64,000 nucleotides of DNA from Elusimicrobiota bacterium (GCA_027319565.1 DAHVNA010000001.1:114716-178715); one strand, 5' to 3'. Positions 6,979 to 45,800 are shown, numbered from the stretch's first letter. Notes: generated by a model not told the origin, from the sequence alone. Numbers and translations: made by a program.

Positions 6979-8581
6979 ATGGGCCTTTGGGATAAAGGCT
7001 CCCAAGGTTTCTCAAAATCTGGGCATTTACCTAAGCCCAAGCGTGGCCTATATTGCCCAATCCCATCTCAACAAAGGCCGTTTGGTTTTAGATCAGCTTT
7101 TTCGCGTGGCCCTTCCTAAACCTAAAGTCGTGGCTCCGCCTAAGGAAGCTTCTCAAATGCCGGGAGTGGAGTTGTGGGGAGATTTTAACGATATTTTGGA
7201 CGTTTTGCGCCCCTCTATAGGCAAACTGGTCAATGCGCCAAAGGAGGTCGTGGTTTCTCTCTCTCCGGAACTCAGTCTCCTTCGTTATTTTCAGATGCCT
7301 CAAATTGAGCAAAGATTTTGGAAAACGGCAATTCCTTTGGAGGCAAAAAAACATATTCCTTTCGCCTTTCAAGGCCTTACCAGCGATTTTCAGGTTTTTC
7401 CTTCTGCGGTTTCAACCCCGGAGGGAAAAACGATGCAGGGGGTCTTGTTCGCCGTCACGTCTAAATCGACCTGGGAAGGCGTTAGAGATTTAATGAAGGG
7501 GTTGAAATTAGAGATGGTGGCCATGGAGACCAGCGTCAACTCTTATTTGAGATTTCTGCTGTCCATGGATAAAGGGATTGCGGATCCTGCTTGCCTTTGG
7601 GTCCATTTTTCCGATGTGAAGGTTCGCATTGTCGGATTTGCAAAAGGAATTCCGCTTTTGTTTAGAGAAGCTGATTGGTATCCCAATGGTGATCTAAGGA
7701 CGCTAGGACTTCCCAGCCTGGTTGATTTTATCAGCCATAAATTAAATTTGGGGTCCGTGCAAAAGTGCTTAGTTAGCGGCGCAGCCAATGAGTCTATCAT
7801 TGCGGGGCTTTCCCAGGAGATAAATCTGAGAGGGGAACCCAAAAACCCTGGACTTCCATTAGGGCTTAAGGGCGGAGATTTTGAGTCTTATGCCGCCATT
7901 GGCGGTTCTTTCCGTTTTACCGCTCCTTCTCCCGCCAATATCGATTTTTCCGCGGCAATGAAGGTGACTGATGGCGAGAGAAAAGCGGCGATGTTTGTTT
8001 TTGGGGCTTCAGTTGTTGTCGCCGTACTTTTTATCGTTTTAGGCTTGTTCTCAGGTGTCCAAGTTTTCATGCAATCACGGGAACTTTCAGGAATTAAAAG
8101 AGACCCGCATGTCGAGGCCCTCTTTCGCGGAAAATCCCAGGGGGATATACAAAAGATGATCTCTAAAATAGAAAAAGAAACGGCTTTTTTAGGCGGCGCC
8201 AGTAATAAAAAAAATGACCCTTCTGTTTTCCTTGAGGATATCGCTGCTTCCATTCCCGAAAACCTTTGGCTGACCGATATAAAACTGGATAATCCCTTAC
8301 CACGGCCAGGGCGCAACATAGGGCAGGGTATGACACTAAAATTATCTGGATATTCCACGGCCGATTCGCGGATGGGGGAAGAAGAAGACGCCAAAAACTT
8401 TAAAGAAGCTCTTGAGGAATTGCCTGATTTTAAAAGATTTTCCGTTCAGATACAATTGCAGAAAGGGCAAAGCCAAAGCATGTTTGGGGGTCTCAATAAA
8501 GACCCGTATGAAGCGGAGCGGCAGCGCGAGAAAAGAACGGGTTTTGATATTACCATTCAGCCGCGATACGATTTAAATTAA
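6956..8581 (+). CDS. pilM: Type IV pilus assembly PilM (actin-like ATPase fold) fused to a PilN-like TM + periplasmic segment.
   Basis: PilM-like N-terminus GIYLSPSVAYIAQ. A single TM at the C-terminal third (MFVFGASVVVAVLFIVLGLFSGVQVF) is followed by a PilN-like periplasmic region (ENLWLTDIKLDN...MTLKLSGYS). Position immediately upstream of the pilO/pilP/pilQ homologues. Confidence 0.6.
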   Translation: MDEKFIDEWAFGIKAPKVSQNLGIYLSPSVAYIAQSHLNKGRLVLDQLFRVALPKPKVVAPPKEASQMPGVELWGDFNDILDVLRPSIGKLVNAPKEVVVSLSPELSLLRYFQMPQIEQRFWKTAIPLEAKKHIPFAFQGLTSDFQVFPSAVSTPEGKTMQGVLFAVTSKSTWEGVRDLMKGLKLEMVAMETSVNSYLRFLLSMDKGIADPACLWVHFSDVKVRIVGFAKGIPLLFREADWYPNGDLRTLGLPSLVDFISHKLNLGSVQKCLVSGAANESIIAGLSQEINLRGEPKNPGLPLGLKGGDFESYAAIGGSFRFTAPSPANIDFSAAMKVTDGERKAAMFVFGASVVVAVLFIVLGLFSGVQVFMQSRELSGIKRDPHVEALFRGKSQGDIQKMISKIEKETAFLGGASNKKNDPSVFLEDIAASIPENLWLTDIKLDNPLPRPGRNIGQGMTLKLSGYSTADSRMGEEEDAKNFKEALEELPDFKRFSVQIQLQKGQSQSMFGGLNKDPYEAERQREKRTGFDITIQPRYDLN

Positions 8582-8585
8582 TTTT

Positions 8586-9175
8586 ATGGCTATGGATATT
8601 AAGGATATCAATAGAAAAATTCGCCATTTGCAGCGAGATTTTGGCGATACTATTTTTGTTCTCCAAAATAAGGGACTTAAGTATTTCCAACGCGTTTGGT
8701 TGGCGGCGCTTCTCATTTGTTTGTACCCTATAAATTCTTTTATCAATCGATGGATAGTAGAATTTCGTCATTAGAGATGAGAATTAAGACAGCCCGGGCC
8801 ACTAATAAATATGCCAAGACCTATAACGATGCCATGGAAAATCTTCTCGTCGTTGAGCGCCGCCTTCCTCCGGCAAGCAAGGGGACCGGGTGGTTAAGCG
8901 ATATTTCTATTTCTTCTCTCAAAGACGAAAACATTACTCCTGATTCAGTCTCTTCCGTCCATCAAGTTCAAAGCGGAAAACTTATTAAGGAAAGCATCTC
9001 GGTCGATTTTCAAGCGAAATTCCCTGAAATTTTTTCGTGGCTTTATAAGATTGAACACGATCATTATCTGATTCATGTTGACTCTCTGCAGATAAAAAAG
9101 AAAGGGCTCGATGAAAACAAAGTTCATTGCACTCTTTCTACTTTGATTCAGGCTGGATCCGGAGGTAATTCCTAA
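8586..9175 (+). CDS. PilO-like inner-membrane pilus assembly protein, apparently split by a frameshift. A TM-bearing ORF (8586..8774) is followed by a coiled-coil periplasmic ORF (8696..9175).
   Basis: ORF 8586..8774 encodes a short cytoplasmic segment plus a TM (RVWLAALLICLYPINSFI). The overlapping +2 frame continues from about 8750 with MDSRISSLEMRIKTARATNKYAKTYNDAMENLL... for roughly 140 aa. Position between pilMN and pilP. The frames switch near the homopolymeric tcttttatcaatcg around 8738-8752. Confidence 0.35.
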
Positions 9176-9904: not shown

Positions 9905-11893
9905 ATGAAGATTAATGGGTGGGGTTTTAAAGGTCTTGCGTGGGGAAAAAGTTTGTGGCGCGCTCTTTGCCTTTTATCAGCCTTGGAATTGGCCCTTTTG
10001 CCTGGGTTGACGGCCCTAGCCCAATCCGACAGCTCAACTCCCGAGGCCAATCCGCAGTTCCAAAATTCCGTGCAAAGTCCTAAAAGCGATTCCGGCTCTC
10101 CAGTGGGAAGCGTTTCCGCCGTTAAAGCCCATGCCGCGTCGGCTTCTAAAGCCCTCGAGCAGGCAAGTTCCCCTTCTCAAGCGGGCGCGTCTCCGTCAGG
10201 AATTCAAATCGGCGCTTCCAGTTCTCCAACGCCCCCGCGTAAGAAAAGAGCCCCATCCCCTTTGGACACACGCGTTTCGATTCGAGTCAAGGGCGCGCCA
10301 TTGGCGACTTTTTTAGATGCCATTTCCGCTCAGGCCAGGATTAATTTCTTAATCACCGAGGGCCTTGAGTCAGTTAAAATGACCGCCTTTTTGCAAAAGG
10401 TGACGGTTCGAGAAGCCTTGCAGATCCTTCTTGAAATTAAAGGCTTAACCTATCGGCAGATTGGCAAAAGTAATACCTATGTCATTAAAAAACGTTCCAA
10501 AAATGCTCCCAACTTTATCACGCGGATTTATTCTCTTTCCTACATACCCTTGGTCAATATCTCTCAACAAGGAACCCAAGGTCAACAAGGAGGAGCGGCA
10601 GGCGGCGCGGCGGGCGGCATGGCGGCAATGCTCGGCGGAATGGGGGGGCCGTCTGCGGGAGGAAGTTCTGGCGGCGGCGCGCCGGGAGGAGCTGGCGGTT
10701 CTGGCGGAGGGTTGGCGCCAGGTCAGGGTGGGCAGGCTTTAGGAATGGGATCCATGATGGGAGGCGCTGGCGTGGGTGGACAGCAAGGCGGCATGCCGGG
10801 AGCGGGAACCGGGGGCGTGAGCTCTATTGTGACCGTGGTCCAATCGGTTTTAACCAAGGCCGGCCGAGTGGCTGTGGATCCTCGAACCAACTCTTTAATC
10901 GTAACCGATGTGCCGGAGGTCTTTCCCCAGGTGGATCAACTGATTGCCGAACTTGACAAAAAAGTTCCCCAGATCATGATTGAGGCCCAGATTGTGGAAA
11001 TTGATTCCAATCGCGCCAATGATCTCGGTTTTGAGTGGGGCGGGCCAAACGGCGAAATGGGGACTTTTACCGGTGGCCAGCGCGATACGTCTTTTCCAAT
11101 GGTTTTGACCGGAGCCAGCGGCCAGCCGCGCTTTTTTGATCCGGTTCAAAACGTCATGAGCACCTTGGCCCTTGAAGGCGGCGGCATGATGGGGGGCAGT
11201 AGCGGCGGCATGGGCGGCGGCATGGGCACGACCTTGGGCGGAATTGGATCCACTGGCGGAACCTTGGCTATTCCCACGACACAGCCGGGAATCAATCCTC
11301 TGACCGGGCTTCCTATGCTGGGGTCTAGCGTCATGACCAGCGTCTTGAACTTAAGCCAGCTGACGATTACCTTACGCATGCTGGTCTCTCGCTCGGAAGC
11401 GCGCTATTTGGGAAAGCCCAAAATCTTAACCGTCAATAATACTCCGGCGACGATTTCTATCACTGGAAACACCGCAATTTACATGTCGCAGCAGACCACC
11501 GGCGGGACCATGGGAATTACCCAGGCGACCTATTCTCCTGTGACTGCAAATACTGGCCTTACTTTGACCGTGACTCCTCAAGTCAACGGCGATGGATATA
11601 TTACGATGGCGGTCAATCCTCAGTTTACCGATGTGCAACCAGCGGTCATTTCAAGCGCGGCCAATCCTGTTTATGACACTCTGGTTCGACGTGCGCAAAC
11701 CCTAGTGCGCGTCAAAAATGGAGAGACCTTGGTTCTTGGAGGGCTTTTGCATTCAACCGAACAGAAAACCGTGCGCAAGGTTCCGTTTTTGGGATATATT
11801 CCCGTCATCGGATGGCTTTTTACCAGCGTCCAAGCCCAGCGCAAGAACACGGATCTGGTCATCTTTATAACGCCGACCATCATTAACGATTGA
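9905..11893 (+). CDS. pilQ: Secretin (PilQ/GspD family) with long Gly-rich low-complexity inserts.
   Basis: Signal peptide. N0-like ITEGLESVKMTAFLQKVTVREALQILLEIKGLTYRQIG. Secretin_N: RVAVDPRTNSLIVTDVPEVFPQVDQLIAELDKKVPQIMIEAQIVEI. Secretin C domain: LVRVKNGETLVLGGLLHSTEQKTVRKVPFLGYIPVIGWLF...DLVIFITPTII. Gly-rich inserts at about aa 218-300 and 420-455. Confidence 0.85.
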   Translation: MKINGWGFKGLAWGKSLWRALCLLSALELALLPGLTALAQSDSSTPEANPQFQNSVQSPKSDSGSPVGSVSAVKAHAASASKALEQASSPSQAGASPSGIQIGASSSPTPPRKKRAPSPLDTRVSIRVKGAPLATFLDAISAQARINFLITEGLESVKMTAFLQKVTVREALQILLEIKGLTYRQIGKSNTYVIKKRSKNAPNFITRIYSLSYIPLVNISQQGTQGQQGGAAGGAAGGMAAMLGGMGGPSAGGSSGGGAPGGAGGSGGGLAPGQGGQALGMGSMMGGAGVGGQQGGMPGAGTGGVSSIVTVVQSVLTKAGRVAVDPRTNSLIVTDVPEVFPQVDQLIAELDKKVPQIMIEAQIVEIDSNRANDLGFEWGGPNGEMGTFTGGQRDTSFPMVLTGASGQPRFFDPVQNVMSTLALEGGGMMGGSSGGMGGGMGTTLGGIGSTGGTLAIPTTQPGINPLTGLPMLGSSVMTSVLNLSQLTITLRMLVSRSEARYLGKPKILTVNNTPATISITGNTAIYMSQQTTGGTMGITQATYSPVTANTGLTLTVTPQVNGDGYITMAVNPQFTDVQPAVISSAANPVYDTLVRRAQTLVRVKNGETLVLGGLLHSTEQKTVRKVPFLGYIPVIGWLFTSVQAQRKNTDLVIFITPTIIND

Positions 11894-11948
11894 AGGCCTT
11901 GACATATTCCGCAAACCCGTTATACTTCTAAAAGGGGTTAAAATTTAA

Positions 11949-13703
11949 ATGCCTGACAAAGCCTTCTTGGCGGATATGATGGTTTCTTCCGGTTCGCTGA
12001 CGGCGGAACAAAAAGAGAAAGCTCTCAAGGCTTCTCAAGAAGCTAGGTGCAGCTTTGAAGAGGCGGTCATTAAACTTGGTTTCGCTTCCGAAAGCGTGGT
12101 CACTGCGGCTTTGTCAAGGCAATTAGGCATTCCCCTCGCTTCGCGGGAAAATAAGATTTTAATCCCGGAAAAAGGCCAGGGGCTTGAGAAATTGATTCCT
12201 GAAAATTTCGCTCGAGATCATCTGGTCGTTCCCCTATTTCTTGAAGATGGCACCCTGGGCGTTGCGATGGCAGATCCTACCAATGTGATGCTTCAAGATA
12301 ATATTCGGGTCTTGAGTTCCAAAACCATTCATCCCTTTGTGGCGGCAAAAACTCAAATTTTAAAGTCCATTGACGAGCTTTATGGCGGAAATCTTGGAGG
12401 CAGTCTCGTTGATCGTACGCTGGAAGAGGGTAAAAAAAGCGGCGGGGTTAGCGCTGAAGAATCCGACTCTGCGGATGTGCGCGTGGATCTCGACAAGGCT
12501 ATTTCTGGTTCAAAAGACGCCCAGATTATTTCTCTTATCAACGCCATTTTAAAACAGGCCGTCAATGAGAGATGTTCCGATATTCATTTGGAAAGTTTTG
12601 ACAACCGCGCGAGTTTGCGCTTCCGCATCGACGGGATTTTGTATGAGAGAAGCTCTCCTCCCAAAGCGATATTCGCGTCCTTGGTTTCGAGGATCAAAAT
12701 TCTCTCGAAACTTGATATCGCGGAGCGCCGTCTGCCTCAAGATGGAACCTTTTCAATTAAACTTCAAAACCGCAATATCGATCTGCGGGTTTCCATTTGC
12801 CCGACGGTTTACGGAGAAAAGGTCGTCATGCGTATTTTAGATAAGGGCGCGGTTAATCTTGACGTAGATAAAATCGGCTTTGAGCCAAAACAGAAAGCGG
12901 ATTTTTTGGATGCGGCCAAACAGCCCCATGGCCTGATATTTCTCACCGGTCCCACGGGGTCCGGAAAAACCACCACCCTTTATTCCGTCTTAAATACCAT
13001 TAAAACGCCGGAGCTTAATTTTATGACTATTGAGGATCCGGTTGAAATTAAGCTCGACGGTCTCAATCAAGTTCAGGTTCGCTCCGATATCGGGCTTACT
13101 TTTGCCGCGGCCTTGCGTTCTTTTTTACGCCAAGATCCGGATGTGATTTTAGTCGGAGAGGTTCGAGATCAGGAAACCGCCCAGACCTGCTTAAGGGCGG
13201 CCTTAACCGGACACCTGGTTCTTTCGACTCTTCACACTAACGACGCGATGTCAACAGTCGTGCGTTTAATTGATCTGGGAATCGAGCCGTTTTTGCTTTC
13301 CGGAAGTCTTCTTTTGGCGGCGGCTCAGCGCTTGGTTCGCATTCTTTGTCCCCATTGCAAAAAGCCTTATAAACCGGACCCCGCTCAATTGGAGGCTTGC
13401 ATCAAGGAATCCATGTTGCCGCAGGCTCAAATTCCGAATCCGGCCAATATCGTTTTTTACAGAGAGCATGGCTGCGATAAATGTTCTCAAACCGGTTATA
13501 TGGGCCGACGGGCGATCTATGAAATTTACCGTATTATTCCGGAGATGAGAGAAATTATCTACAAATACGGCGGCGATTTGGCCCGGCTTCGAGAGGTGGC
13601 GGTCAAAAGCGGCATGTGGGATTTAAGGGCGAGCGGTTGGAGAAAGGTTTTGTCCGGGTTGACGACTTCTGAAGAGGTGCTCTCGGTGACGATGAAGGAA
13701 TAG
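11949..13703 (+). CDS. pilB: Type IV pilus / T2SS assembly ATPase (PilB/GspE family).
   Basis: T2SSE_N domain (LADMMVSSGSLTAEQKEKALKASQEARCSFEEAVIKLGFASESVV). Walker A GPTGSGKTTT. Asp box LVGEVRD. His box. Tetracysteine CPHCK...CDKC. Confidence 0.85.
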   Translation: MPDKAFLADMMVSSGSLTAEQKEKALKASQEARCSFEEAVIKLGFASESVVTAALSRQLGIPLASRENKILIPEKGQGLEKLIPENFARDHLVVPLFLEDGTLGVAMADPTNVMLQDNIRVLSSKTIHPFVAAKTQILKSIDELYGGNLGGSLVDRTLEEGKKSGGVSAEESDSADVRVDLDKAISGSKDAQIISLINAILKQAVNERCSDIHLESFDNRASLRFRIDGILYERSSPPKAIFASLVSRIKILSKLDIAERRLPQDGTFSIKLQNRNIDLRVSICPTVYGEKVVMRILDKGAVNLDVDKIGFEPKQKADFLDAAKQPHGLIFLTGPTGSGKTTTLYSVLNTIKTPELNFMTIEDPVEIKLDGLNQVQVRSDIGLTFAAALRSFLRQDPDVILVGEVRDQETAQTCLRAALTGHLVLSTLHTNDAMSTVVRLIDLGIEPFLLSGSLLLAAAQRLVRILCPHCKKPYKPDPAQLEACIKESMLPQAQIPNPANIVFYREHGCDKCSQTGYMGRRAIYEIYRIIPEMREIIYKYGGDLARLREVAVKSGMWDLRASGWRKVLSGLTTSEEVLSVTMKE

Positions 13704-13711
13704 GAGGCCTT

Positions 13712-14935
13712 ATGTCTCAATTTTCATATGTCGTTCAAGACGCTAGGGGCGAGGCCATTTCTGGGACCCTTGAAGCGGGAGATGAAAACGAAGCGGTGGC
13801 GGCCCTTCAATCAAAGGGCTATTTTATTTTGTCATTGTCTTCTAAAGACACAAAGACGACCAGCCGACAAGGCGCATCTTCCAAATCGCCCAAGGTCGCC
13901 CAGCAGGATCTTATTTTCTTTTCTGAACAATTGTCGACGCTTTTAACCGGTGGCGTTCCTTTAGTTCGAGCTTTGTCCTTGCTTGGAGAACATACCAACT
14001 CCCCGGGGCTTCACGCGGTGGTGGGAGCGGTGACCCAAGACGTGTCCCGCGGAACGGCGCTTTATAAGGCTCTGGCGAAACATCCCGCCATTTTCGATAC
14101 CTTGTGGGTTTCCCTGGTTCAAGCGGGAGAAATGGGAGGACAACTCCCCAAGGTTTTGCGGCAAATCGCCAATTATTTGACGGCTCAAGCGGAATTAAGA
14201 GGAAAAATCATCACGGCTTTGGCTTATCCCGCGGTTCTGGCTTGTATGTCGGGAGGGGTTCTCGCTTTTTTCGTCATCCATATCGTCCCGGTTTTTGCCG
14301 ATATTTTTAAGCAATTTCACATTAAACTCCCGATGCTCACCCAAATGGTTGTTTCCACTTCGGAACTCATCGTTCATCACTTAGGCCTGATTATTTTTGT
14401 CGTGGTGGGGGGATACATGGCGTGGAAATCGTATACTTCCACCGATGCCGGCAAAATTGCCAAATGGAATCTGATATTTGGAATTCCTTTTTTTGGCGAC
14501 TTCATCAAACACATTATGGTCGAAAGACTCTTGACTACTCTTTCGACTTTAATTGAAAGCGGCGTCAGTATTCTTAATGCGATTGCGGTTTTAGAAGGCG
14601 TTTTTTCATCCAATATTATTTTCCAGACGGCTCTGAGCGCGATTAAGGTGGACGTGGCGGCGGGAAAATCAATATCGGCGGCCTTTAGAAAATCGGGGGT
14701 TTTGCCTTCCTTGGTAACCGAGATGATGTTCATGGGGGAAGAATCGGGCAAGTTGCCGGATATGCTTCAGACCATGTCCGGGTTTTACAGGCTTCAAATT
14801 GATCAGTTTACTCGCAGATTCACCGCCATTATAGACCCGATACTGGTGGTCGGAATCGGCGGACTTGTCGGCGTTATTGTTTTAGCGGTCTTTATGCCAA
14901 TCTTTAAAATGTCGACGATGGGAGGAGGACATTGA
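13712..14935 (+). CDS. pilC: Type IV pilus / T2SS inner-membrane platform protein (PilC/GspF family).
   Basis: Two T2SSF repeats (FSEQLSTLLTGGVPLVRALSLL and LTTLSTLIESGVSILNAIAVL). Three TM segments. Directly follows the ATPase gene. Confidence 0.85.
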   Translation: MSQFSYVVQDARGEAISGTLEAGDENEAVAALQSKGYFILSLSSKDTKTTSRQGASSKSPKVAQQDLIFFSEQLSTLLTGGVPLVRALSLLGEHTNSPGLHAVVGAVTQDVSRGTALYKALAKHPAIFDTLWVSLVQAGEMGGQLPKVLRQIANYLTAQAELRGKIITALAYPAVLACMSGGVLAFFVIHIVPVFADIFKQFHIKLPMLTQMVVSTSELIVHHLGLIIFVVVGGYMAWKSYTSTDAGKIAKWNLIFGIPFFGDFIKHIMVERLLTTLSTLIESGVSILNAIAVLEGVFSSNIIFQTALSAIKVDVAAGKSISAAFRKSGVLPSLVTEMMFMGEESGKLPDMLQTMSGFYRLQIDQFTRRFTAIIDPILVVGIGGLVGVIVLAVFMPIFKMSTMGGGH

Positions 14936-15546
14936 TGAACGGAGAGGAGAAGAAAGTAAAAGAGAGTAACGGAGAGTCACGGAAAGTAGAAGAAAGTTAC
15001 GGAAAGCGACAGAAGCAACGGAAACAGCCTTTTTCCGTTTCTTTCCGTTTCTTTCCGTTTCTTTCCGTTCCGTTTGGTTTTACGCTCATAGAGCTTTTAG
15101 TGGTGATTTTGATTGTCGGAATATTGGCGGCTATTGGATATCCTTCCTACATCCGTTCGATGGAAACCAGCAAGGCCAACGACGCCGTGGGGTATTTGAC
15201 CATGGCTGGGAACGCCGATCGGATGTACGCCGTGGATCATAATGGGATATATGTTGCAGCGGGACAAATTACTGATTCCTGTGATAATGGGGCTACTTGT
15301 CCTCAGAACAATGCCTGCGACTTGGTCTATTGCGGCTATATGCCGGCGGACAATTACAGTGAAAAGCCCTACAGTATTACCATTAATGCTTACGCTCCGC
15401 CTCCATCAGCGCTGGTGACGGTTCAGCGTTGTACAGGTTCTTCTCCTTGTACAAATTCTTCTCCTTACACCGGTTGGGGATATAATATTGATGCCAATGG
15501 AAATGTCACGCCATTTGGTAATCAGACGCCGCCGCCGCCACAATAA
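14935..15546 (+). CDS. Type IV pilin/pseudopilin (probable major subunit) with an exceptionally long charged leader of about 48 aa before the prepilin cleavage site.
   Basis: The ATG overlaps the pilC stop (ttgATGA). Class III signal ...SVPFG|FTLIELLVVILIVGILAAIGYPSY, with Gly at -1 and Glu at +5. The C-terminal domain is Cys-rich with a Ser/Thr/Pro-rich tail (GSSPCTNSSPYTGWGY...TPPPPQ). The leader is encoded by inverted and tandem repeat DNA. Confidence 0.75.
   Translation: MNGEEKKVKESNGESRKVEESYGKRQKQRKQPFSVSFRFFPFLSVPFGFTLIELLVVILIVGILAAIGYPSYIRSMETSKANDAVGYLTMAGNADRMYAVDHNGIYVAAGQITDSCDNGATCPQNNACDLVYCGYMPADNYSEKPYSITINAYAPPPSALVTVQRCTGSSPCTNSSPYTGWGYNIDANGNVTPFGNQTPPPPQ
14966..15075 (+). 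repeat. Inverted repeat with a tandem arm inside the pilin leader-coding region. ACGGAAAG-type units at 14966-15028 face (CTTTCCGTTT)x4 at 15031-15070.
   Basis: Direct reading: gtaacggagag / tcacggaaag / ttacggaaag / caacggaaacag, then cc, then ttttccgttt ctttccgttt ctttccgttt ctttccgttc cgttt. The two arms are reverse complements, so the segment can fold as a long RNA/DNA hairpin. Confidence 0.7.
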
Positions 15547-15561
15547 GAAAGAAGAAAGCAA

Positions 15562-16131
15562 ATGAAAGAAACGGGCGCGACGCTTATTGAGGTTTTAGCC
15601 TCCGTTCTCATAGCGGCGGTGATGACTTCCGCTGTTTTCAGCGTGACCTTGGGGGCCAAGGTACAATCAAAAATTACGGAAGAACACAATGCGGCGTCTG
15701 AGTGCGTGACCCAGCTGACCAATGAACTTCACTCTTTCGTCACCGGTTATTGGGATTACAATACGAATACTTTCAATTCCAATATGACGGAAATCTGCGG
15801 CCCCGCTGATTCGTCTTGTTACCCGGGAACAAGTGGGGGGAATTCCTCTCAATGGACTTGGGCAGATCTGGGAGTAACGGATAACTGCGGGAGCGGCTGT
15901 TACGTTTTAGCTACCGGAACTCACGTCCTTTCAGTTGGGCCCAATGGCTTGACGGCTTTGGGCCAACCCTTTTGTCTTCCTCCCTGGATGTGGCAGCCGC
16001 CTTATAATCCTAGTGGAAATCAGCTCTTGTCCTATACCGTTTCGGCTCCACCGATCGTCTCCGGTCAACAAGTGGGAGGGCCAGGGGTTCAAGTGACGGT
16101 GAATTGGTATAACATCAATGGGTCCCAATGA
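15562..16131 (+). CDS. Minor pilin/pseudopilin (prepilin-type N-terminus).
   Basis: MKETG|ATLIEVLASVLIAAVMTSAVF has the class III signal with Glu at +5. Size and position match the minor-pilin block. Confidence 0.7.
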   Translation: MKETGATLIEVLASVLIAAVMTSAVFSVTLGAKVQSKITEEHNAASECVTQLTNELHSFVTGYWDYNTNTFNSNMTEICGPADSSCYPGTSGGNSSQWTWADLGVTDNCGSGCYVLATGTHVLSVGPNGLTALGQPFCLPPWMWQPPYNPSGNQLLSYTVSAPPIVSGQQVGGPGVQVTVNWYNINGSQ

Positions 16132-16802
16132 ATAAAAATTTTATCGGAGTTTCGATGAGAAATGGCGGATTTACCTTGGTCGAAATGATTGTCGCTCTTC
16201 TTTTAAGCTCTCTTGTCATGGTGGGCTTGATTGATATTACCGCTAGCATCATCGCCCAGCATTTTGAGGGAATTCGTAGAGGAAGAGTAGACAGTGAGAC
16301 CCTTTATTCTCTCGATCAGATGAGGCTGGAGCTTGAAGCCGCGACCTATTACTCTTATCCCAATACGTCAAGCCCGGCTACCATGTCCATTCAGGGCTGC
16401 GGAAATTATTTTTCAGCGACAAGCCCTGGTACGCAAATTTACACGGGGCCCGGCGCAACAATAAGTTCTTTTGCCTATTGCCTTGAGAACAAGTGTACAG
16501 GGAGTAATTCCAATTTGTGCGATCCATCGGGTTATACGGGGCCCTATGATTTAATTCGCTATTATAATCCCAATGGTTGTCCTATTTCGTGCGGAGGAGG
16601 GACGCCTCAGACCTTGGTTTATCAGAATGTCTATTTAGAACCAATATCATTAAATCCTTCGGGCCAGCCTTTTGTCTTGAACCGGCCGCTCGGCGGGGTC
16701 GATGTGCATATGATTATAGGCTATCCTGTTTTGGCGGGAGAAACCCCCACCTATTATCAAATTGATACAACCTATATTCCGGATACGGGGCGCATGCAGT
16801 GA
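16128..16802 (+). CDS. Minor pilin/pseudopilin (PilW/GspJ-like).
   Basis: MRNGG|FTLVEMIVALLLSSLVMVGL prepilin motif. Start overlaps the upstream stop (ATGA). Confidence 0.7.
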   Translation: MNKNFIGVSMRNGGFTLVEMIVALLLSSLVMVGLIDITASIIAQHFEGIRRGRVDSETLYSLDQMRLELEAATYYSYPNTSSPATMSIQGCGNYFSATSPGTQIYTGPGATISSFAYCLENKCTGSNSNLCDPSGYTGPYDLIRYYNPNGCPISCGGGTPQTLVYQNVYLEPISLNPSGQPFVLNRPLGGVDVHMIIGYPVLAGETPTYYQIDTTYIPDTGRMQ

Positions 16803-17233
16803 TTAAAAATTCCAGAGGGCAGATTTTAACCAGCACCTTGGTGACCGCCATGGTGGTAGTCCTCATCGCGGCCGGGCTCATGCATTTAATCTTGATGAGG
16901 TATACCGCCGCTAATAGAGCGACGATGGAGGTTAAATACACCCGCTGCGTTCAACTGGCCGTGGGTCAATTTTTTTCTACCTGGGACAGGCTTAGTTCAA
17001 CTGCGGGGGTCACCGATCCTGTTTGCAGTAGCGCGTCGCCACTGTTTACCTGTGCTGGGTCAAACCATGGACATTGCCATTGTACCTGTACATTTAACAG
17101 TGGATCCTTATCCGGCCTCACGGTGAAGGTGAAACCTGGTACAAATGGTGCAAACCCTCCTTGCACTTTTGAGGCTCAGACTACAACGAATACGTCCTCG
17201 CCCTTTGCCTCGGTTACCCCCGTTTGCCAGTGA
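16799..17233 (+). CDS. GspK/PilX-like pseudopilin lacking Glu+5.
   Basis: N-terminus SRGQILTSTLVTAMVVVLIAAGLMHLILM resembles the GspK-type hydrophobic segment, with no Glu at +5. The product is short (144 aa) and Cys-rich. It is the last gene of the pilin block. Confidence 0.45.
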   Translation: MIKNSRGQILTSTLVTAMVVVLIAAGLMHLILMRYTAANRATMEVKYTRCVQLAVGQFFSTWDRLSSTAGVTDPVCSSASPLFTCAGSNHGHCHCTCTFNSGSLSGLTVKVKPGTNGANPPCTFEAQTTTNTSSPFASVTPVCQ

Positions 17234-18201
17234 AACGCCTAATTGTTACCGCCGACGATTTTGGGGCGAGTTCTTTTGTCAACGAGGCGGTCATCCGCGC
17301 TTTTAAAGAAGGCATTTTGCGCTTTGCAAGCTTGATTGTTGACGCGCCCGCGGCCGAAGAAGCGGCGAAATTGGCTAAAGAAAACCCTGGCCTTGGCGTC
17401 GGGCTTCATTTGGACTTGTGCCATGAATTTGGAAGCGATTCTTGCTTTCCTCGTCATTCCGGCGAAAGCCGGAATCCAGACTTTCGCGCGGAGCTAGACT
17501 CCGGCTTACAAATTGCCGGAGTGACGAATCGAGCGGTTTGGGCCAATTCTCCAGCTCTTTGGGGCTTACGGTATTTTTTTTCTCCATATTGGAGAAAACG
17601 GATCGCTTCAGAAATTTCCCGGCAACTAGAGAAGTTTCTCTCGCTTGGAATTAATCCTACGCATGCGGACGGGCACACTAATATCCATATCCACCCCGTT
17701 ATTTTCCCCGCCCTTTTGCGGGCCTGCCAAAAATACGGAATTTCCAGGATCAGGGTTCCCGCCGGAGAGTACGATTTGGGCCGGCGCTATTTAAAGAAAA
17801 TTCCGTTTCTAAACAAGGTAGAATACGCGGCGTTTGGAGCGCTTGGCCCCTATCTCAAAAAACAAGCCAAGAAAATCGCGCCTCAAATCGAGATACTTCC
17901 CCGCTGTTTTGGACTTTTGCGCTCAGGGCGCATGAGGGAAGACTATGTTCTAAGGCTTTTAGAAAATCTGCCCGAGGGAGACAGCGAAATTTATTTTCAT
18001 CCCTCGCTGGATCCAAAAAGCCGAGTGTTCGGAGATTCTCCGACAAAGACCCATCAGACCATAACGGAATTTGAAACCTTGACTAGTCCGCGGATTTTAG
18101 AAGCTCTGGGGCGTTTGGATATCGCGTTGTTTTCGCCCGGTGGCTTAGATAAATCAAAAAGCCAAACGAAGACCACAAAATCTCCCGAATATGGCGGATA
18201 A
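17224..18201 (+). CDS. hpnK: ChbG/YdjC-family carbohydrate deacetylase, HpnK-like. It carries an in-frame REP-like insertion of about 25 aa.
   Basis: YdjC signature RLIVTADDFGASSFVNEAVIRAFKEGILRFASLIVDAP...GVGLHLDL. It sits next to hpnL, hpnI and hpnJ-like genes. The segment CFPRHSGESRNPDFRAELDSGLQIAGVT is encoded by the palindromic element at 17452-17526. Confidence 0.6.
   Translation: MPVKRLIVTADDFGASSFVNEAVIRAFKEGILRFASLIVDAPAAEEAAKLAKENPGLGVGLHLDLCHEFGSDSCFPRHSGESRNPDFRAELDSGLQIAGVTNRAVWANSPALWGLRYFFSPYWRKRIASEISRQLEKFLSLGINPTHADGHTNIHIHPVIFPALLRACQKYGISRIRVPAGEYDLGRRYLKKIPFLNKVEYAAFGALGPYLKKQAKKIAPQIEILPRCFGLLRSGRMREDYVLRLLENLPEGDSEIYFHPSLDPKSRVFGDSPTKTHQTITEFETLTSPRILEALGRLDIALFSPGGLDKSKSQTKTTKSPEYGG
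17452..17526 (+). repeat. REP/MITE-like double-hairpin palindromic element, copy 1, in frame inside the hpnK CDS.
   Basis: CGTCATTCCGGC-GAAA-GCCGGAATCCAG ...21 nt... ACTCCGGC-TTACAAATT-GCCGGAGTGACG. These are two perfect 8-bp stems, and the element ends are themselves inverted (CGTCA...TGACG). Confidence 0.7.
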
Positions 18202-19087
18202 TGGCAAAACTAAGTCCCTGACCTGCGGTATATCCAAAGGCCTTAAAGATCAAAACCTTTCCGGCTTCTTGAGTTCCGAGCTTGGCCGGCACCATAAAAA
18301 ACACCGCCTCAAAGGCGTTTGAGAGAGCTTCGATGACCAAGGCCGTAAAGGCGTCAATGGGCAGATTCATAAATGAGCAGATGACTGCCACTTCAATCAT
18401 CATTGAGGCGTATCCAACGGTAAAAAACAAGACGGAAAAGCCCATCCGAATGGGATGCGCCGTTAAATAGCGTCTCATGTTCTCCCGAATGGCCGAAATT
18501 CCGGGCCCGCCGATATCGCAAAAAAATTTTCCTTGTTTGTTTTTATAGGCGAGAATAAAGAGAGAAAAGGCGATTAGCCCGGCGACAAACAGGGCTCCTA
18601 AAACGATCCAAAGAATTTCTCCGCCGTCTAAGGCGTTCATTTTTCCTAATATTAAAAATAAAATTCCGACTAAAATAAAGGCCATTTGCCCGAGGCTTTG
18701 AGAGAGTTTGCCGATAAAGACGCTGGTGTTTTTTATTTCGGAAGAAAGTTCGCTTCCCAAAAAAGGCGGGCGGACAAATTCTCCGGCGACGGTAGCCGAT
18801 GGAGTGAGATAATTGACCCCGTCGCCCGCGAGTCTGCCTTGAGCCAAGGACAGAAAGCGAACTTTATTCCCGTCTTGGGGCGCCAAGGTAAAACGCCAGG
18901 CCCAGGCATTGAGGCTTTGTTCAAGAATCGGAATGGGGAGAATGGCGAGAAAACCCCAAAGACCGAACTCGCGGATATGCGCGAGTATTCTAGCGGGGCC
19001 GAGATGATGGATGAGGAAAAAAAGCGTAATCAGCCCGATGATGATGACAAGCCGGTGAAACCAAAGAAGAGCTTTTTTAGAGCTCAT
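18083..19087 (-). CDS. hpnL: Flippase-like / lysylphosphatidylglycerol-synthase-TM-domain membrane protein (HpnL-like).
   Basis: Eight predicted TM helices. It belongs to the UPF0104/LPG_synthase_TM-type family. Genomic context is with hpnI, hpnJ and hpnK. It overlaps the hpnK 3' end convergently by about 118 nt. Confidence 0.5.
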   Translation of the reverse strand: MSSKKALLWFHRLVIIIGLITLFFLIHHLGPARILAHIREFGLWGFLAILPIPILEQSLNAWAWRFTLAPQDGNKVRFLSLAQGRLAGDGVNYLTPSATVAGEFVRPPFLGSELSSEIKNTSVFIGKLSQSLGQMAFILVGILFLILGKMNALDGGEILWIVLGALFVAGLIAFSLFILAYKNKQGKFFCDIGGPGISAIRENMRRYLTAHPIRMGFSVLFFTVGYASMMIEVAVICSFMNLPIDAFTALVIEALSNAFEAVFFMVPAKLGTQEAGKVLIFKAFGYTAGQGLSFAIIRHIREILWSSFGFLIYLSHRAKTTRYPNAPELLKSAD

Positions 19088-20256
19088 CTTTCTGCGGCAA
19101 CTAAAGCGGGCTCGTCAATAGTTTCGGGGAAGGAATAGGCTTCTCCTCTCCAGGAGACGGATTGGTTTTTCCAGCCATATCCCCAGGCGAAAAAAATGAT
19201 GATTTCGTTTAAGGGCAACAGGAAAAAAGAGCGCCAGTTTGACTTCACGCCGGAGGCGTCTAAAATCCGCTGCTGCGCCAAAAATTTGGATAAAACGACG
19301 GCGGCCATCAACATGAGAGCGTTTGAACTAGGGCCAAAGAGAAATAAAGAGAGAATGAGCAGAGAAAACCCATGGAGAAACAAAAGCCCTAGGTATCCAG
19401 AAGCGCGGCAGGTCCGAATCGTGTGGGCCCAGCGAATCTGGTGCTTAAGGTATTTGAGAAACCCTGAATCTTCTGTCACGCATTCGACTAAACAAGAGGC
19501 GGCAGCGATTTGAAGCCCAAGGGCTTTGACCGCTTCGCCTAAAACAAAATCATCGGCTAGGTGGCGGGAGAGATACTCAAATCCGCCGATTTTTTCAAAA
19601 ACCTCTTTGCGAATCAGCATCGCCGCTCCCATCGCAAAACGCATCCCAAAAGAATAAGCCGCCATGGCTTGGGGGAGAAAATAGGCGTTGATGGATAATG
19701 CTTCCATCGAGGGCCAGAACTTGCGGCTTTGAGCCCCCTGGTAAAAGGAGGTGACCAGCCCAATTTGGGGGTTTGAAAGGGGTTCGGTCATGCGCTTTAG
19801 GAAATCTTTTTGGACTCGGACATCGGAGTCGGCCATCATTAAGAGGGGATATTTAATGAAAGCTTGAGCGGAAGAGACGTTATTGATTTTAGGGTTAAGC
19901 CCCTTAAGGGAATTGCCTTGAGAGAAAACAATTTCAATATCTTGTTCCGGAAATTTTTCCTTTATTTTTTGCGCGATCGAAGTGGCGGGGTCATCGGGGT
20001 TTGTAATGGTGAGGATGATTTGAAACAGTGGGTAATCAAGAGAACAAAAGCTTTCTAAATTTTCGGCTAGCCCCGGTTCGTTGCCCTTGAGCGGTTTAAG
20101 AATGGTAACCGGAGGACAAAAATCAGACTGGGATTTCCTTTTTTTTAGAATGGAAGGGGCAAGAAGAGCCGTTAAAAGAGAAAAGGCGATTGAAAAAACG
20201 GCGATTCCGTAGAGAAAGAAGAAAACCACATCAACGGCTGCCGGTTGAGAAATCAT
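19084..20256 (-). CDS. hpnI: Family 2/21 glycosyltransferase (ceramide-glucosyltransferase-like), HpnI-like.
   Basis: N-terminal TM, then VTILKPLKGNEPGLAENLESFCSLDYP. A DxD region (MMADSDVRV) and a C-terminal TM. The family assignment to HpnI rests on recalled motifs. Confidence 0.6.
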   Translation of the reverse strand: MISQPAAVDVVFFFLYGIAVFSIAFSLLTALLAPSILKKRKSQSDFCPPVTILKPLKGNEPGLAENLESFCSLDYPLFQIILTITNPDDPATSIAQKIKEKFPEQDIEIVFSQGNSLKGLNPKINNVSSAQAFIKYPLLMMADSDVRVQKDFLKRMTEPLSNPQIGLVTSFYQGAQSRKFWPSMEALSINAYFLPQAMAAYSFGMRFAMGAAMLIRKEVFEKIGGFEYLSRHLADDFVLGEAVKALGLQIAAASCLVECVTEDSGFLKYLKHQIRWAHTIRTCRASGYLGLLFLHGFSLLILSLFLFGPSSNALMLMAAVVLSKFLAQQRILDASGVKSNWRSFFLLPLNEIIIFFAWGYGWKNQSVSWRGEAYSFPETIDEPALVAAER

Positions 20257-20262
20257 TCCAGA

Positions 20263-21720
20263 CTAGACAGCCGCCATGTCTTTTTTTGGGGCTTCGGCTT
20301 TGGCGGTTTTTCGATTTCGCAGATACTGGAAAAACTCTTTTCCTTCCCGCAGACGGCGTCTGCGCTCGTTGGGATCTTTGAGCATTCCGGCCAGTATTCT
20401 CAAAATGGGTTTCGGGCGGGCATAGAACCGTGAATAAAAGCGCAAGACCGCCTGTTCAATCTCAGAGCTTGAAAGATGCGGATAGTGAAGCGTGCAGGCC
20501 TGGGTGCCGTCCGAGCGGGACAAAGCGCTTTCGTCATACCATTTGTTGGCCATCGCTTGGCGATAAAGTTCGGTGCCGGGATAGGGTGCCGACAAGGAGA
20601 CCTGGATCGTCTTAACGTCGAGTTCGCAGGCGTATTTCATCGTTTCTTCGATAGTGTCCTTGGTCTCGCCGGGAAGGCCCAGAATAAAACAGCCGTGAAT
20701 ATCAATTCCAAGTTTTCGGCAGTTTTTCGTAAATTCCTTGGCGATATCGGTGCGGACGCCTTTTTTGATGTTGTTGAGAATTTGCTGATTGCCGGATTCA
20801 TATCCGACGAGCAAGAGGCGAAGCCCATTTTCCCTGAATATTTTTAAATATTCATAAGGGATGTTCGCGCGTGAATTGCAAGCCCAGGTAATTCCCAGTT
20901 TTTTAAGCCCTTTGGCGATTTCAACGGCGCGAGAGAGATTAGCCGTGAAGGTATCGTCATCAAAGAAAAAATCCTTGACTTGAGGAAACATTTCTTTGGC
21001 CCGGGCCATTTCAGCGATAACGCTTTGAGCGGAACGGACGCGATAAAGATGTCCGCTGACGGTTTGGGGCCACAGGCAAAAGCTGCAACGGGCCGGGCAG
21101 CCGCGGCCGGTGTAGAGAGAAAGATAGGGGTGTCGCAGATAGCCGTTAAAATAGTTTTCGATGGTTAAATCTCTTTTGTAAACATCGATGACGGAGGGAA
21201 GTTCATCCATGTTTTCAATCAGCGGGCGATCGTTGTTGTGAAAGATCGCTCCATTTTTTCGATAACTCATCCCTAAAATATCTTCCCAAGGTTTTCCTTG
21301 TGCGATTTCAAGAATGGTATAGTCAAATTCTTCGCGGGCGACAAAGTCGAGATGCGGAGCGGCTTCCAATGACTCTTGGGGCAAAACCGCGACATGGGCG
21401 CCGACAAATCCCATGAGCATCTGAGGATAAGTGTCTTTGAGGGCTTTGGCCACTTTAATGTCGCTGTCGAAAGAGGGAGTGGAGGTATGAATGACGCAGA
21501 GTTCAAAGCCCTTGGCCCTTTGGATGACTTCGGCTAAACTCAAATCATCGGCGGGAGCGTCGATCAGTTTTGAACTTGGAATCATCGCCGCCGGCTGGGC
21601 CAACCAGGTTGGATACCAAAACGAGCGCACCTCCCGAGTGGTTTGATAGCGGGATCCGGCTCCGCCGTCGAATCCTTCAAAAGAAGGTGGATTTAGAAAA
21701 AGGGTTCTCATTGTATTCAT
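20263..21720 (-). CDS. hpnJ: B12-binding radical SAM protein, HpnJ-like.
   Basis: N-terminal LFLNPPSFEGFDGGAGSRYQTTREVRSFWYPTWLAQPAA (B12-binding-like). Radical SAM cluster motif GCPARCSFC (CX3CX2C). Confidence 0.65.
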   Translation of the reverse strand: MNTMRTLFLNPPSFEGFDGGAGSRYQTTREVRSFWYPTWLAQPAAMIPSSKLIDAPADDLSLAEVIQRAKGFELCVIHTSTPSFDSDIKVAKALKDTYPQMLMGFVGAHVAVLPQESLEAAPHLDFVAREEFDYTILEIAQGKPWEDILGMSYRKNGAIFHNNDRPLIENMDELPSVIDVYKRDLTIENYFNGYLRHPYLSLYTGRGCPARCSFCLWPQTVSGHLYRVRSAQSVIAEMARAKEMFPQVKDFFFDDDTFTANLSRAVEIAKGLKKLGITWACNSRANIPYEYLKIFRENGLRLLLVGYESGNQQILNNIKKGVRTDIAKEFTKNCRKLGIDIHGCFILGLPGETKDTIEETMKYACELDVKTIQVSLSAPYPGTELYRQAMANKWYDESALSRSDGTQACTLHYPHLSSSEIEQAVLRFYSRFYARPKPILRILAGMLKDPNERRRRLREGKEFFQYLRNRKTAKAEAPKKDMAAV

Positions 21721-42727: not shown

Positions 42728-42781
42728 TGAATGGACGGAATTTTATTTCTAGTGGAGTGGTTCATAAATCCATTTACAATC

Positions 42782-42855
42782 CGTCACCCCGGCAGGTCTT
42801 AAGCCGGGGTCCAGCCTCTTTGTGGGTTTGGATTCCGGCAACAGCCGGAATGACG
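42782..42855 (-). repeat. REP/MITE-like double-hairpin element, copy 2, in inverse orientation to copy 1. It lies in the 5' leader / N-terminal extension of the FlgD-Ig gene.
   Basis: The reverse complement reads CGTCATTCCGGC-TGTT-GCCGGAATCCAAACCCACAAAGAGGCTGG-ACCCCGGC-TTAAGACCT-GCCGGGGTGACG, the same architecture as copy 1 at 17452-17526. Confidence 0.7.
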
Positions 42856-45800
42856 AAAATGCAAAATGTAAGCAAGAATTGGAGACTCTACGCTAGGGGA
42901 AAATGGCTTGCCATTTTCTTCTTCTTGATCGCCTTTTTATGGCCAAGGAATCTTCATGCCAAATCATCTCCATTAGAGCCCCCCAGCCTGATTTTTTCGC
43001 CCGCTGGAAACGGATCTCGAAAAACTCTTTCTTTTGTCGTTAATCTGCCGGAGACCGCCGAAGTCTCTAGCTGGCGTTTTGAGATTCGAGAGAAGGGAAA
43101 CAAAGACCTTCCCGGCGCCCTTGTCAAAGCATTTTCCGGTGATGGACGCCCGCCTCAAAAGATTGTCTGGGATGGAAAAGACACCCAAAACCGGGTGGTC
43201 GAGGATGGAACTTATTATTATTCGTTGAGCCTTCAGACCCCGGCTGGAAATCAAGCCGCGATTCGCCTTTCTCCGGTGATTGTCGACCGCGTTCCTCCCA
43301 CTATTTCGGCCAAGGTCCATCCCAGAATTTTTTCTCCCAACGGTCTTAAGCCGGAGACCGTTTTTACTTTGAAAGCTTCCGATCAGTACGGAATTTATGA
43401 ATGGCTGCTTGAAATTAAAGGTTCCGATGGGGTGCCGGTCAAGTCTTGGATGGGAAAAGGGCGTCCGCCCGCGGCCGTGCGTTGGGATGGGAGAGGAGAT
43501 TTTAATGAAGACGTGCCGAACGGGACCTATACCTTTCAGCTCACGGTTGAGAACCTGGCTTCAAATCGCGCGGTCACGCCGCCCCAGACGGTGACGGTTA
43601 AAAGGCAAGGCGTGGTTTCAACCGTGGGAGTGACTCCGGACGTTTTTTCCCCGCATAAAGAGAAACCGATCGCGAGTTTTGATATTACCGGCGGCGATCC
43701 TTCCTCGGTTGAGCGTTGGGAGCTCAAAATTATCAACCAAGCCGGCAGGCCCGTCTTTTCTTTCAAAGGCAATGGGGCTCCACCCGCGCGTCTTGACTGG
43801 AATGGGGATATTTCTAAGGATAAGACCGCGCCTGACGGGGCTTATCAAGTTATCTTATATGAGACCGACAATGCCGGGAACACCGCCGCTTCCGCTCCGG
43901 AACCCCTCTATGTCGATACAAAGCCGCCTCTTTTGGAAGCGCGCCTGGAGCCGGATTTGTTGAGTCCGGGAAAACAGCGCGAAAATTCCCAAGGGATTTT
44001 TAAATTGCGCGCTGAGAGCCGATATCCGTTTAAATGGGCCCTTAAAATTTATACCGATGTCGGAGAACCGGTCAGAACTTGGAGCGGGAAAATGGGGTCA
44101 AGAGTCCCGAACCAAATTTTGTGGCACGGCAATAACGACTCCGGGCAGATTGTCACCGACGGGACCTATTCTTATTCCCTTTGGGCTTCTGATATCGCCG
44201 GAAATGAAGGGGAAACTCCGCGGCAAAAATTCGTGGTGAACACGACTCCCCCGGCTCTGTCTGTTTCAGCGGATCATGCCCTTTTTTCTCCCAATGGCGA
44301 CCCCACTCTGAGCCACGTCGTTTTTAGTTTGAGCGCCCAGGATGCCAGTCCCTTCGCGAGCTGGGCTCTTTTGATTAACGATTCAAGCGGCAATCTTGTT
44401 CGCGAATTCACCGGATCTCCGCTCAATATTCCGGAGAGCGTCTCATGGAACGGGAAAAGCAAAGACCGCGAACCGCTTCCGGACGGGACCTACTCCTATG
44501 CGCTCGAGGCGAAAGATATCGCGGGAAATTCCGCCAAGACTAGTCCCCAAAATATCGTTATTGGAGCGACCAAGCCCATTCCTCGGGTGTCTTCTTCTCT
44601 GGACGCTATCTCGCCCAATGCCGATGGATTTAAAGACACGACCGATTTCCATTTGAGCGTCAAATCCTTCAATCCGGTTGAAAAATGGTTTCTTAGGATT
44701 TTTGATGAAGACAAGGTCGCGCGCCGGACCTTTGAAGGGCAGGGAGACGTTCCCGGAACCATCCAATGGGGCGGCGAGGGAGACGATCAAAAAACGCTTC
44801 CGGACGGGAGATATTCTTATCAGCTGGAAGTGGTCGACGCCGCCGGAAACACCAGCAAGACCCGCCTTAAATCTATTTTGATCAACACAACGCCGCCCAC
44901 AATTAAAATTACCGCCGACCCTGCTCTTTTTTCGCCGAAACCGACGGCGCCTCATTTTAGCTCTTCGACCATGTTTGTCCTAGGCTATCAAGATGTCAGC
45001 CCGGTCATGAGATGGAAAGTGATCATTCAGGACCCGATGAAAAATAATGTTCGCGTTTTTTCCGGAAATTCTTCTTTTCCGCGGTCAATTTCCTGGTATG
45101 GGCGTTCCAGCTCCAGAAAGATTTTACCGGACGGGCCCTACACCTATACTCTTTTCGCGGAAGATGATGTTGGCAATAAGTCGACCACCTCCGAGCAGAT
45201 TTTGCGCTTGGACGGCTCTTCTCCCCAGGTGAGTTTGAGAGCGGACCCCACGCTTTTTTCGCCCGGGACGGGCTCTCAGAAAAACGAGACGACTCTATTG
45301 TTGGGATATAAGGCCAAGGCCGACATCTCTAAATGGAAATTGTCCATTGACTTAAAAAAGGGAGAAGTCGCGCGCGTTTTCTCGGGCCTTGGGCGTCCGC
45401 CGCAAAATATCCCATGGGACGGGAAAAACGCCTACGGGCGCATTCTTCCCGATGGGACTTACGACGCGTTTTTGAAAGTCATTGACGAAGTCGGCAACGA
45501 GGGGCTTAGCCCCGCCGCTAAAATCACGATCGACACCTCAAAACCAGTCGCCACTGTCGTCGCCCAAACCGAGCAGTTGGAAGACCTAAGCGTTCCTCTG
45601 ACCGTTACGAAAGACGCGGACAAGGATATCGTTATTTCCTTGGCCAGCGAGGTCCTTTTTGATAGCGGCAAGTCGACTTTAAAAGATGCGGCCGACAATA
45701 CCCTTTTAAGAGCCGCCTATCTTATTAAGCGTTATCCCCATCGCGCCGTTTTAATTAATGGGTATACCGACAATGTGCCAATCCATGACGCGTCGTTTAA

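Follow-up and report, generated by a model that had tools for sequence, protein, structure and literature searches.

How a palindromic repeat can lie inside an enzyme gene and leave that gene readable from end to end is the question raised by a double hairpin in a deacetylase gene of the DNA studied here, a stretch of 64,000 nucleotides that we call the window. We think it probable that this double hairpin is the core of a palindromic repeat of about 120 nt, composed of two inverted hairpins of the NTS/SRM type described below, that was inserted into an HpnK-like gene. The sequence comparisons that follow show the element to be a mobile or once-mobile repeat, and they bear with different strength on how it moves and on what became of the enzyme.

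The double hairpin and its host gene

The 75-nt double hairpin of the original prediction was recovered at exactly 17452-17526, where it makes up codons 77-101 of the open reading frame 17224-18201(+). It starts with the first base of codon 77, and its 25 codons (RHSGESRNPDFRAELDSGLQIAGVT) contain no stop and leave the frame unbroken. The core consists of two inverted hairpins of 28 and 33 nt (Table 1) with perfect local stems, ATTCCGGC/GCCGGAAT around the 4-nt loop GAAA and ACTCCGGC/GCCGGAGT around a 9-nt loop, and the right stem differs from the left one by a compensatory change from T-A to C-G. The outer 13-nt arms of the core are 92% complementary and form terminal inverted repeats, as in a classical MITE. 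RNA folding of a 101-nt stretch resulted in -48.7 kcal/mol (z = -5.6), a value reached by none of 200 shuffles, and DNA folding of this stretch gave z = -2.9 versus shuffles. In the minimum-energy fold the two halves pair lengthwise and form one long hairpin, so that this REPIN-like trait is present. Neither of the 28-30-nt halves occurred in the window by chance in 100 shuffles, and a search of Rfam over the whole window returned no family match. The hairpin is open in five of six reading frames, the sixth of which reads GAA TGA. A 14-nt direct repeat to the right of the core (17529/17550) was judged to be due to chance, with about three such pairs estimated per 400 nt. With exact coordinates, perfect stems and an intact reading frame, the predicted palindromic double hairpin in frame within a deacetylase gene is confirmed.

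Table 1. Positions of the repeat copies, their parts and the host gene (window coordinates unless a contig is named)
Feature	Position	Strand	Basis or remark
Host gene, YdjC-family HpnK-like deacetylase (hopanoid pathway), 325 aa, intact	17224..18201	+	Pfam YdjC 1.4e-54
Entire segment that homologues lack, about 120 nt (residues 67-106 HEFGSDSCFP...NRAVWA), ends uncertain by about 6 nt	17422..17541	+	homologue alignment; 120-nt DNA gap versus L125
ATTCTTGCTT, 10-mer outside the 75-nt core, common to both copies	17438..17447	+	on the 4-nt-loop side in both copies
Left SRM/NTS-type hairpin, CGTCA-TTCCGGC-GAAA-GCCGGAA-TCCAG	17452..17479	+	SRM motif match; profile E = 8e-10
Spacer between the hairpins, 14 nt	17480..17493	.	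position between the hairpins
Right SRM-type hairpin, inverted, 9-nt loop; minus-strand reading CGTCA-CTCCGGC-AATTTGTAA-GCCGGAG-TCTAG	17494..17526	-	SRM motif match on the minus strand
Second doublet, same family, 74 nt, orientation opposite to the first; between a TPR gene and an OmpA-like gene	42782..42855	-	profile match; same layout
Reverse complement of ATTCTTGCTT, flanking the second copy	42870..42879	-	shared 10-mer
Insertion in the sister lineage, 102 nt, after RYLKK, site different from that of the window insertion	L125 10451-10552		also in L126, L127, L241 and L242

The segment that sets this protein apart is longer than the core. In an alignment of 120 sequences, the interval Cys66-Pro110 comprises 5 residues in 112 of the 120 homologues, 7-26 in seven of them and 45 in this protein, and an alignment of the DNA with the syntenic orthologue in contig L125 leaves a gap of 120 nt at the segment. 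The inserted DNA is therefore about 120 nt long (residues 67-106), with the double hairpin at its centre and flanks of about 30 nt on the left and about 15 nt on the right. It had been predicted that YdjC/HpnK homologues would lack the insert, and a segment at the same position was indeed found in 0 of 119 homologues; the closest relatives (69-82% identity over the aligned residues) are all without it. It had also been proposed that the element adds about 25 residues right after the conserved GLHLDL segment. The in-frame placement is correct, whereas the number of added residues is rather about 40, and the core does not follow directly, because GLHLDL covers residues 60-65 and the core begins at residue 77. 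Searches for a close empty site of the window insertion, including a metagenome scan, found none; the metagenome scan, in which the lineage-specific flank was combined with the hairpin, returned only two unrelated chance matches. Nine contigs, drawn from several independent assemblies, encode an identical protein, and an assembly artefact is therefore not the source of the segment. The sequences thus compared make the segment an insertion and rule against a native loop.

The three closest homologues (P0002-P0004) are near-identical to the window protein on both sides of a region of about 35 residues just after the loop (window residues 107-140), over which they diverge sharply; this divergence belongs to the side of P0002-P0004, because more distant homologues resemble the window sequence there. 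The protein P0128 (333 aa) was considered as a third insertion and proved to carry only a mis-called N-terminal extension.

The best NCBIfam match of the host protein is HpnK (TIGR03473) with 200.4 bits, which is below the cut-off of 232.6, and 200.9 bits are reached with the insert deleted. Its neighbours encode an HpnL-like membrane protein, an HpnI-like glycosyltransferase that is borderline (309.1 versus a cut-off of 310) and an HpnJ radical-SAM equivalog that is above its cut-off (771.6 versus 577.6). From this score and these neighbours the label “HpnK-like” is apt. The nearest named homologues come from metagenome-assembled genomes (MAGs) of Elusimicrobiota. In the region 9905-21720, the hpnK-like gene is directly preceded by a type IV pilus or type II secretion-like cluster with a secretin, an ATPase, a platform protein and four pilin-like genes, and directly followed by the hpnL-, hpnI- and hpnJ-like genes. 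Within the pilus/secretion cluster, a gene for a 196-aa protein is split into two frames (8577-8771 and 8681-9172) by a 1-base deletion at about position 8718, as seen by comparison with L121, which comes from another assembly of the same organism and shows no other difference over 21 kb; the deletion reflects either a difference between strains or an error in sequencing.

All 36 of the 36 invariant residues of the family are retained in the host protein, including all catalytic residues. Its AlphaFold model has a mean pLDDT of 88, with more than 90 for most of the protein and 46-70 for the insert, and the best structural matches are all of the YdjC family (ChbG/YdjC: 7vi8, 2i5i, 8jqe/8jqf, 2e67). 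In the model, the insert is located between the strand 58-63 and the helices that begin at about residue 103. The ChbG protein of K. pneumoniae binds its zinc ion via D11, H61 and H125, uses D10 as general base and lines the acetate pocket with L66 (PMC9402603). By sequence alignment, D11, H61, H125 and D10 correspond to D12, H62, H151 and D11 of the host protein. The insert therefore begins 4-5 residues past a ligand of the metal, on that face of the barrel where catalysis takes place, and the model suggests that this 40-residue excursion beside the active site is probably disordered. The structure model had been proposed as a check on whether the frame was kept by insertion into a surface loop; a variable loop of low confidence is what it shows, while the site is not on a remote surface and instead adjoins the catalytic metal.

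Further copies and the hairpin family

The second doublet of the window has the layout of the first, with one 4-nt-loop and one 9-nt-loop hairpin, and carries the compensatory stem variant CCCCGGC/GCCGGGG. As the 10-mer ATTCTTGCTT is common to both copies, with a chance probability of about 0.001-0.002, the repeated unit must be longer than the 75-nt core. In the gene calls, the second doublet falls inside the N-terminus of an OmpA-like gene encoding 1099 aa, where it reads WIPATAGMT in the context ...SRGPASLWVWIPATAGMT.... The called start of this gene overlaps the stop codon of the upstream TPR gene (ATGA), and a signal-peptide-like stretch follows only after the element (42724-42860); the real start may be the ATG in the terminal GGAATGACG of the element (42850) or the next ATG (42859). 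An attempt to find the empty site of this copy via orthologues of the OmpA-like gene gave only distant repeat-domain proteins. Beyond the two doublets, no further copies were detected in the window by BLAST, by a mismatch search or with a profile from 45 hairpins, and about 8 kb added on each side (about 16 kb) contained no further hairpin copy. The copy density is low, with two doublets and hence four hairpins in 64 kb, or in about 80 kb when the flanks are included. Further copies of the element had been expected, and they are found in the second doublet (42782-42855), in the orthologue of a related genome and at many loci elsewhere.

The family could be identified from the literature. PMC11893778 (Nat Commun 2025) defines the Neisseria Transformation Sequence (NTS), CGTCATTCCCGCGMAVGCGGGAATCYRG, together with a degenerate Ssn-related motif (SRM), which we used as published (HGTCWYN(0-2)YYVSBRHN(0-5)WNVSBRGN(0-2)RNCYNB; PMC11893778). 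Both halves of 17452-17526 match the SRM, giving two matches in the 64-kb window against 0.19 expected from first-order Markov simulations, and a compensating C/G swap in the stem is all that separates the left hairpin from the NTS consensus of Neisseria. The halves of the second doublet miss the strict motif on account of their loops but match the 45-hairpin profile. All four hairpins have the same asymmetric flanks as the Neisseria NTS, with CGTCA before the stem and TCCAG or TCTAG after it. The element had been labelled “REP/MITE-like”; the motif match allows the family to be named more exactly as NTS/SRM, which is distinct from a classical GTAG-type REP.

One genome per species was scanned with the pattern CGTCAYYCCGGC-N(4-9)-GCCGGRRTCYAR, for which one or two chance genome matches were estimated. 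The pattern was found at 120 or more genome loci (at least 120) in many phyla, among them Pseudomonadota, Chloroflexota, Thermodesulfobacteriota, candidate-phyla bacteria, Nitrospiraceae, Acidimicrobiia, Fibrobacter and one Bathyarchaeota MAG, and at 101 loci in a viral collection. Inverted doublets with outward CGTCA...TGACG ends account for 54 occurrences, and their spacers vary in length and sequence. At two stem positions that the pattern leaves free, 97% of the matches are Watson-Crick paired, with four pair types, against about 25% expected by chance. The conserved unit in this comparison is the hairpin. Its translations RHSGESRNP, WIPA.AGMT, VIPA.AGIQ and LDSG.RRNDE recur at unrelated loci, which bears out the earlier statement that peptides of the RHSGESRNP and WIPATAGMT type are characteristic products of these palindromes.

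Some of these loci deserve mention in their own right. In L033, a single hairpin (515-536) is read in frame as RHSGAGRNP inside a Pfam-confirmed restriction-modification gene of the MmeI family, and a similar case in L019 (7646-7667) concerns a cysteine-rich membrane protein with no Pfam match. Long open frames across hairpins in GC-rich loci were mostly not genes, and Pfam confirmed only that of L033. Two doublets (462-549 and 1740-1818) are located on a 3.8-kb contig binned as Candidatus Bathyarchaeota (L114), so that either the repeats have spread across domains or a bacterial contig was mis-binned. The 9-nt loops (17506-17514 and 42794-42802 in the window, and those in L078, L103 and L114) are alike across phyla (AGGTCTTAA, ATGTCTTAA, AGGTTTTTA, AATTTGTAA), and this suggests that the 9-nt-loop variant may be a second conserved hairpin subtype.

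A natural counterpart to the window insertion exists in a sister lineage. The contigs L125-L127 are fully syntenic with the window and encode a homologue, P0008, that carries its own insertion from the same hairpin family at a different site (Table 1), in a length-variable stretch between the helices 182-189 and 195-218. L128 encodes a protein that is 93% identical and has this site empty (near 1500). The empty site reads TTTAAAAAAAGTC|TCTTTAGG and the filled site AAAAAAAGTC-GTAACTACTCA-[68-nt doublet]-AACC-TGAGCAGTTGC-AAAAAATC-TCTTTAGG, in which GTAACTACTCA and TGAGCAGTTGC form an outer imperfect 11-nt inverted repeat (9/11) outside the hairpins. On folding, the complete unit forms a closed multi-branch hairpin (z = -4.9). 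The repeat at its junctions can be read as TC (2 bp) or as an imperfect AAAAAA(G)TC, and a target duplication is possible but, from these sequences, ambiguous. Three alleles, in all of which the sister insertion is present, are 3-9 nt apart; for the two deeper comparisons, synonymous and non-synonymous changes stand at 6:3 and 5:1 (pN/pS 0.15 and 0.06), while the site ratio predicts about 2 synonymous changes per 9 in the unconstrained case. These counts are small, and they suggest that purifying selection may have continued in the sister lineage after the insertion. It is mildly surprising that one small gene received two insertions in sister lineages at this low copy density, the chance of the second being estimated at about 2%.

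Movement of the element and state of the enzyme

The nuclease SsnA is a GIY-YIG protein of 94 aa whose binding to the NTS hairpin is restricted to single-stranded DNA and whose cut is made a few nucleotides upstream of the hairpin; ssn genes, of the single-domain GIY-YIG type cd10448, are typically flanked by SRM repeats in an insertion-sequence-like arrangement, and how Ssn-linked hairpin repeats multiply is left open (PMC11893778). Among the hairpin loci collected here, L045 contains a 90-aa GIY-YIG gene (PF01541) that is flanked by hairpins, and in L152 a GIY-YIG gene (PF01541) adjoins a doublet. The gene in L045 lies between two direct repeats of about 60 nt (3150-3920), each with a hairpin in the same orientation and not inverted as in the doublets. 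The tblastn searches for GIY-YIG genes used query sequences that were partly approximate, and hits were used only once they were confirmed by Pfam. They found no GIY-YIG gene in the window or in the approximately 16 kb of added flank. GIY-YIG is the only recurrent neighbouring gene that was found around hairpin loci. An all-against-all clustering of the ORFs of 120 hairpin loci yielded only translated repeats as recurrent neighbour proteins. To our knowledge, a transposition of NTS/SRM repeats has never been demonstrated.

The most probable course of events begins with a non-autonomous palindromic repeat of about 120 nt that landed in the loop after beta-strand 3 of a deacetylase of the YdjC family, the HpnK-like host protein. 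Three properties allowed the insertion to survive, namely a length divisible by three, a hairpin with five of its six frames open and a loop that tolerates a change in length. The element itself would spread in single-stranded hairpin form, on which an Ssn-family GIY-YIG nuclease from another place in the genome would act in trans. We infer this last step only tentatively and consider it possible rather than probable; the proposed Ssn link rests on a motif with a characterised nuclease and on the gene association at two loci.

Alternatively, the repeat may be a conventional MITE, in which a DDE-type transposase recognises the outer ends and the SRM hairpins are internal cargo. The inserted DNA overshoots the hairpins by 11-30 nt per side and has lineage-specific outer repeats, and it is for this reason that a conventional transposase is kept here as a live rival. 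The 102-nt insert of L125 carries its 11-nt inverted repeat (9/11) outside the hairpins, and the AAAAAA(G)TC on both sides could be a target duplication of 8-9 bp; many doublets of other phyla likewise have lineage-specific inverted repeats just outside the hairpins, and the two window copies share their 10-mer outside the core. The overshoot, the outer repeat of L125 and the possible duplication would fit such a transposase at least as well as a cleavage at the hairpin foot. However, the outer sequences depend on the lineage, whereas the 28-nt hairpin keeps its sequence in many phyla and shows covariation, which is the opposite of what would be expected if the outer ends were recognised; the candidate duplication has mismatches and may just as well be a TC repeat of 2 bp, and no transposase was seen nearby, so that we regard a conventional MITE as distinctly unlikely. 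A REPIN, that is a classical REP doublet moved by a RAYT tyrosine transposase, would have the same architecture, a pair of short palindromes in inverted orientation able to form a single long hairpin. RAYT-linked REPs have a conserved GTAG or GTGG tetranucleotide at the foot of the palindrome (Nunvar et al. 2010, as cited in PMC11893778). The foot is CGTCA in the element described here and neither hairpin of 17452-17526 adjoins a GTAG or GTGG, the sequence instead matches the Ssn-related motif, and the only recurrent neighbour gene found is GIY-YIG; a REPIN is thus very unlikely. That the segment is no mobile DNA at all but a native lineage-specific loop or an assembly artefact could be argued from the mere two copies that are visible in about 80 kb. 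As the same hairpin occurs at many unrelated loci (at least 120 in genomes and 101 on viral contigs), the nearest homologues lack the segment and nine independent contigs carry it identically, the likelihood of this is close to nil.

A further alternative accepts the inserted repeat and concerns its effect, namely that the insertion inactivated the enzyme and left a young pseudogene that is in frame by chance. The insert indeed has its start 4-5 residues beyond the zinc ligand His62, where K. pneumoniae ChbG has Leu66 in its acetate pocket. It is also not improbable that an insertion leaves the frame open, as five of the six hairpin frames contain no stop; we estimate from these frames that this would hold for about one in every four or five random insertions. 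Against a pseudogene stand the complete retention of the 36 invariant residues, the intact hpnI-, hpnJ- and hpnL-like genes next to it, the fact that both independent insertions are multiples of three, and the mostly synonymous differences between the alleles with the sister insertion. Moreover, homologues have loops of 5 to 26 residues at this point, where the HpnK profile also contains about 20 additional positions. We therefore think that inactivation is unlikely, and the host gene is predicted still to encode a full-length enzyme with every catalytic residue kept.

Known palindromic elements and what the locus adds

The NTS/SRM repeats with SsnA (PMC11893778) are closest to the element, with the same 28-nt layout of CGTCA, 7-nt stem, GNNN loop, stem and TCCAG and a near-identical sequence. 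They are likewise multi-copy and spread across phyla, and a small GIY-YIG gene adjoins such hairpins at two loci. The stem differs, being TTCCGGC here and TTCCCGC in the NTS, one half has a 9-nt loop, and no ssn gene was found in about 80 kb of this genome. The main text of PMC11893778 does not describe in-frame insertions in genes, and the terms “in-frame” and “intragenic” do not occur in it. The dRS3 elements and NIMEs of Neisseria are also short units bounded by inverted palindromes of the ATTCC type, and the dRS3 core is contained in the NTS (PMC11893778), but NIMEs form intergenic arrays in Neisseria, whereas here one unit lies in a coding sequence of an unrelated, probably Elusimicrobiota-like lineage.

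In-frame palindromic insertions in genes are already known from Rickettsia palindromic elements, intragenic ERIC and QMITE1 (PMC10969869). Rickettsia palindromic elements are palindromic sequences of about 100-150 bp that occur in frame in unrelated metabolic genes and add a peptide while the fold stays compatible with function (Ogata et al. 2000, as reviewed in PMC10969869); they differ in host lineage. A lead to a possible relationship in sequence is that Rickettsia is listed among the SRM-rich genera (PMC11893778). Intragenic MITEs such as ERIC, QMITE1 and cyanobacterial ones (PMC10969869) are similarly small and non-autonomous, with terminal inverted repeats and in-frame host fusions, while the present element has terminal repeats that are themselves hairpins, conserved in many phyla, and is not known to have a parent insertion sequence. 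With REPs and REPINs with RAYT, the element has in common the inverted doublet of short palindromes and a proposed mobilisation in trans on single-stranded hairpins, but it has another motif without a GTAG/GTGG foot and an association with GIY-YIG rather than with a Y1 transposase.

The lineage and the gene are thus a previously unreported setting for an SRM insertion, and the type of event is itself known; the principle of mobile palindromes is not changed by this locus. What it adds is an enzyme gene that has stayed intact with a repeat inserted in frame next to the metal site, a further insertion that arose independently in the orthologous gene of a sister lineage, and a natural pair of filled and empty sites that bounds the inserted DNA at 102 nt, which is more than the hairpins alone. 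For annotation, the hairpins explain the recurrent RHSGESRNP, VIPAKAGIQ and WIPAFAGMT peptides in database proteins as well as false N-terminal extensions such as that at 42724-42855. In a wider reading, which we deem quite improbable, SRM doublets would be pan-bacterial, coding-compatible mobile hairpins that repeatedly add enzyme loops of 25-40 residues, in a Rickettsia-like manner but in many phyla. If this were true, the two hits in the hpnK orthologue group would mean a target preference or a selection for a longer active-site loop, beyond mere tolerance, and the L125/L128 pair, in which an outer inverted repeat and an A-rich flank are seen, would be a first natural record of the insertion of an SRM repeat.
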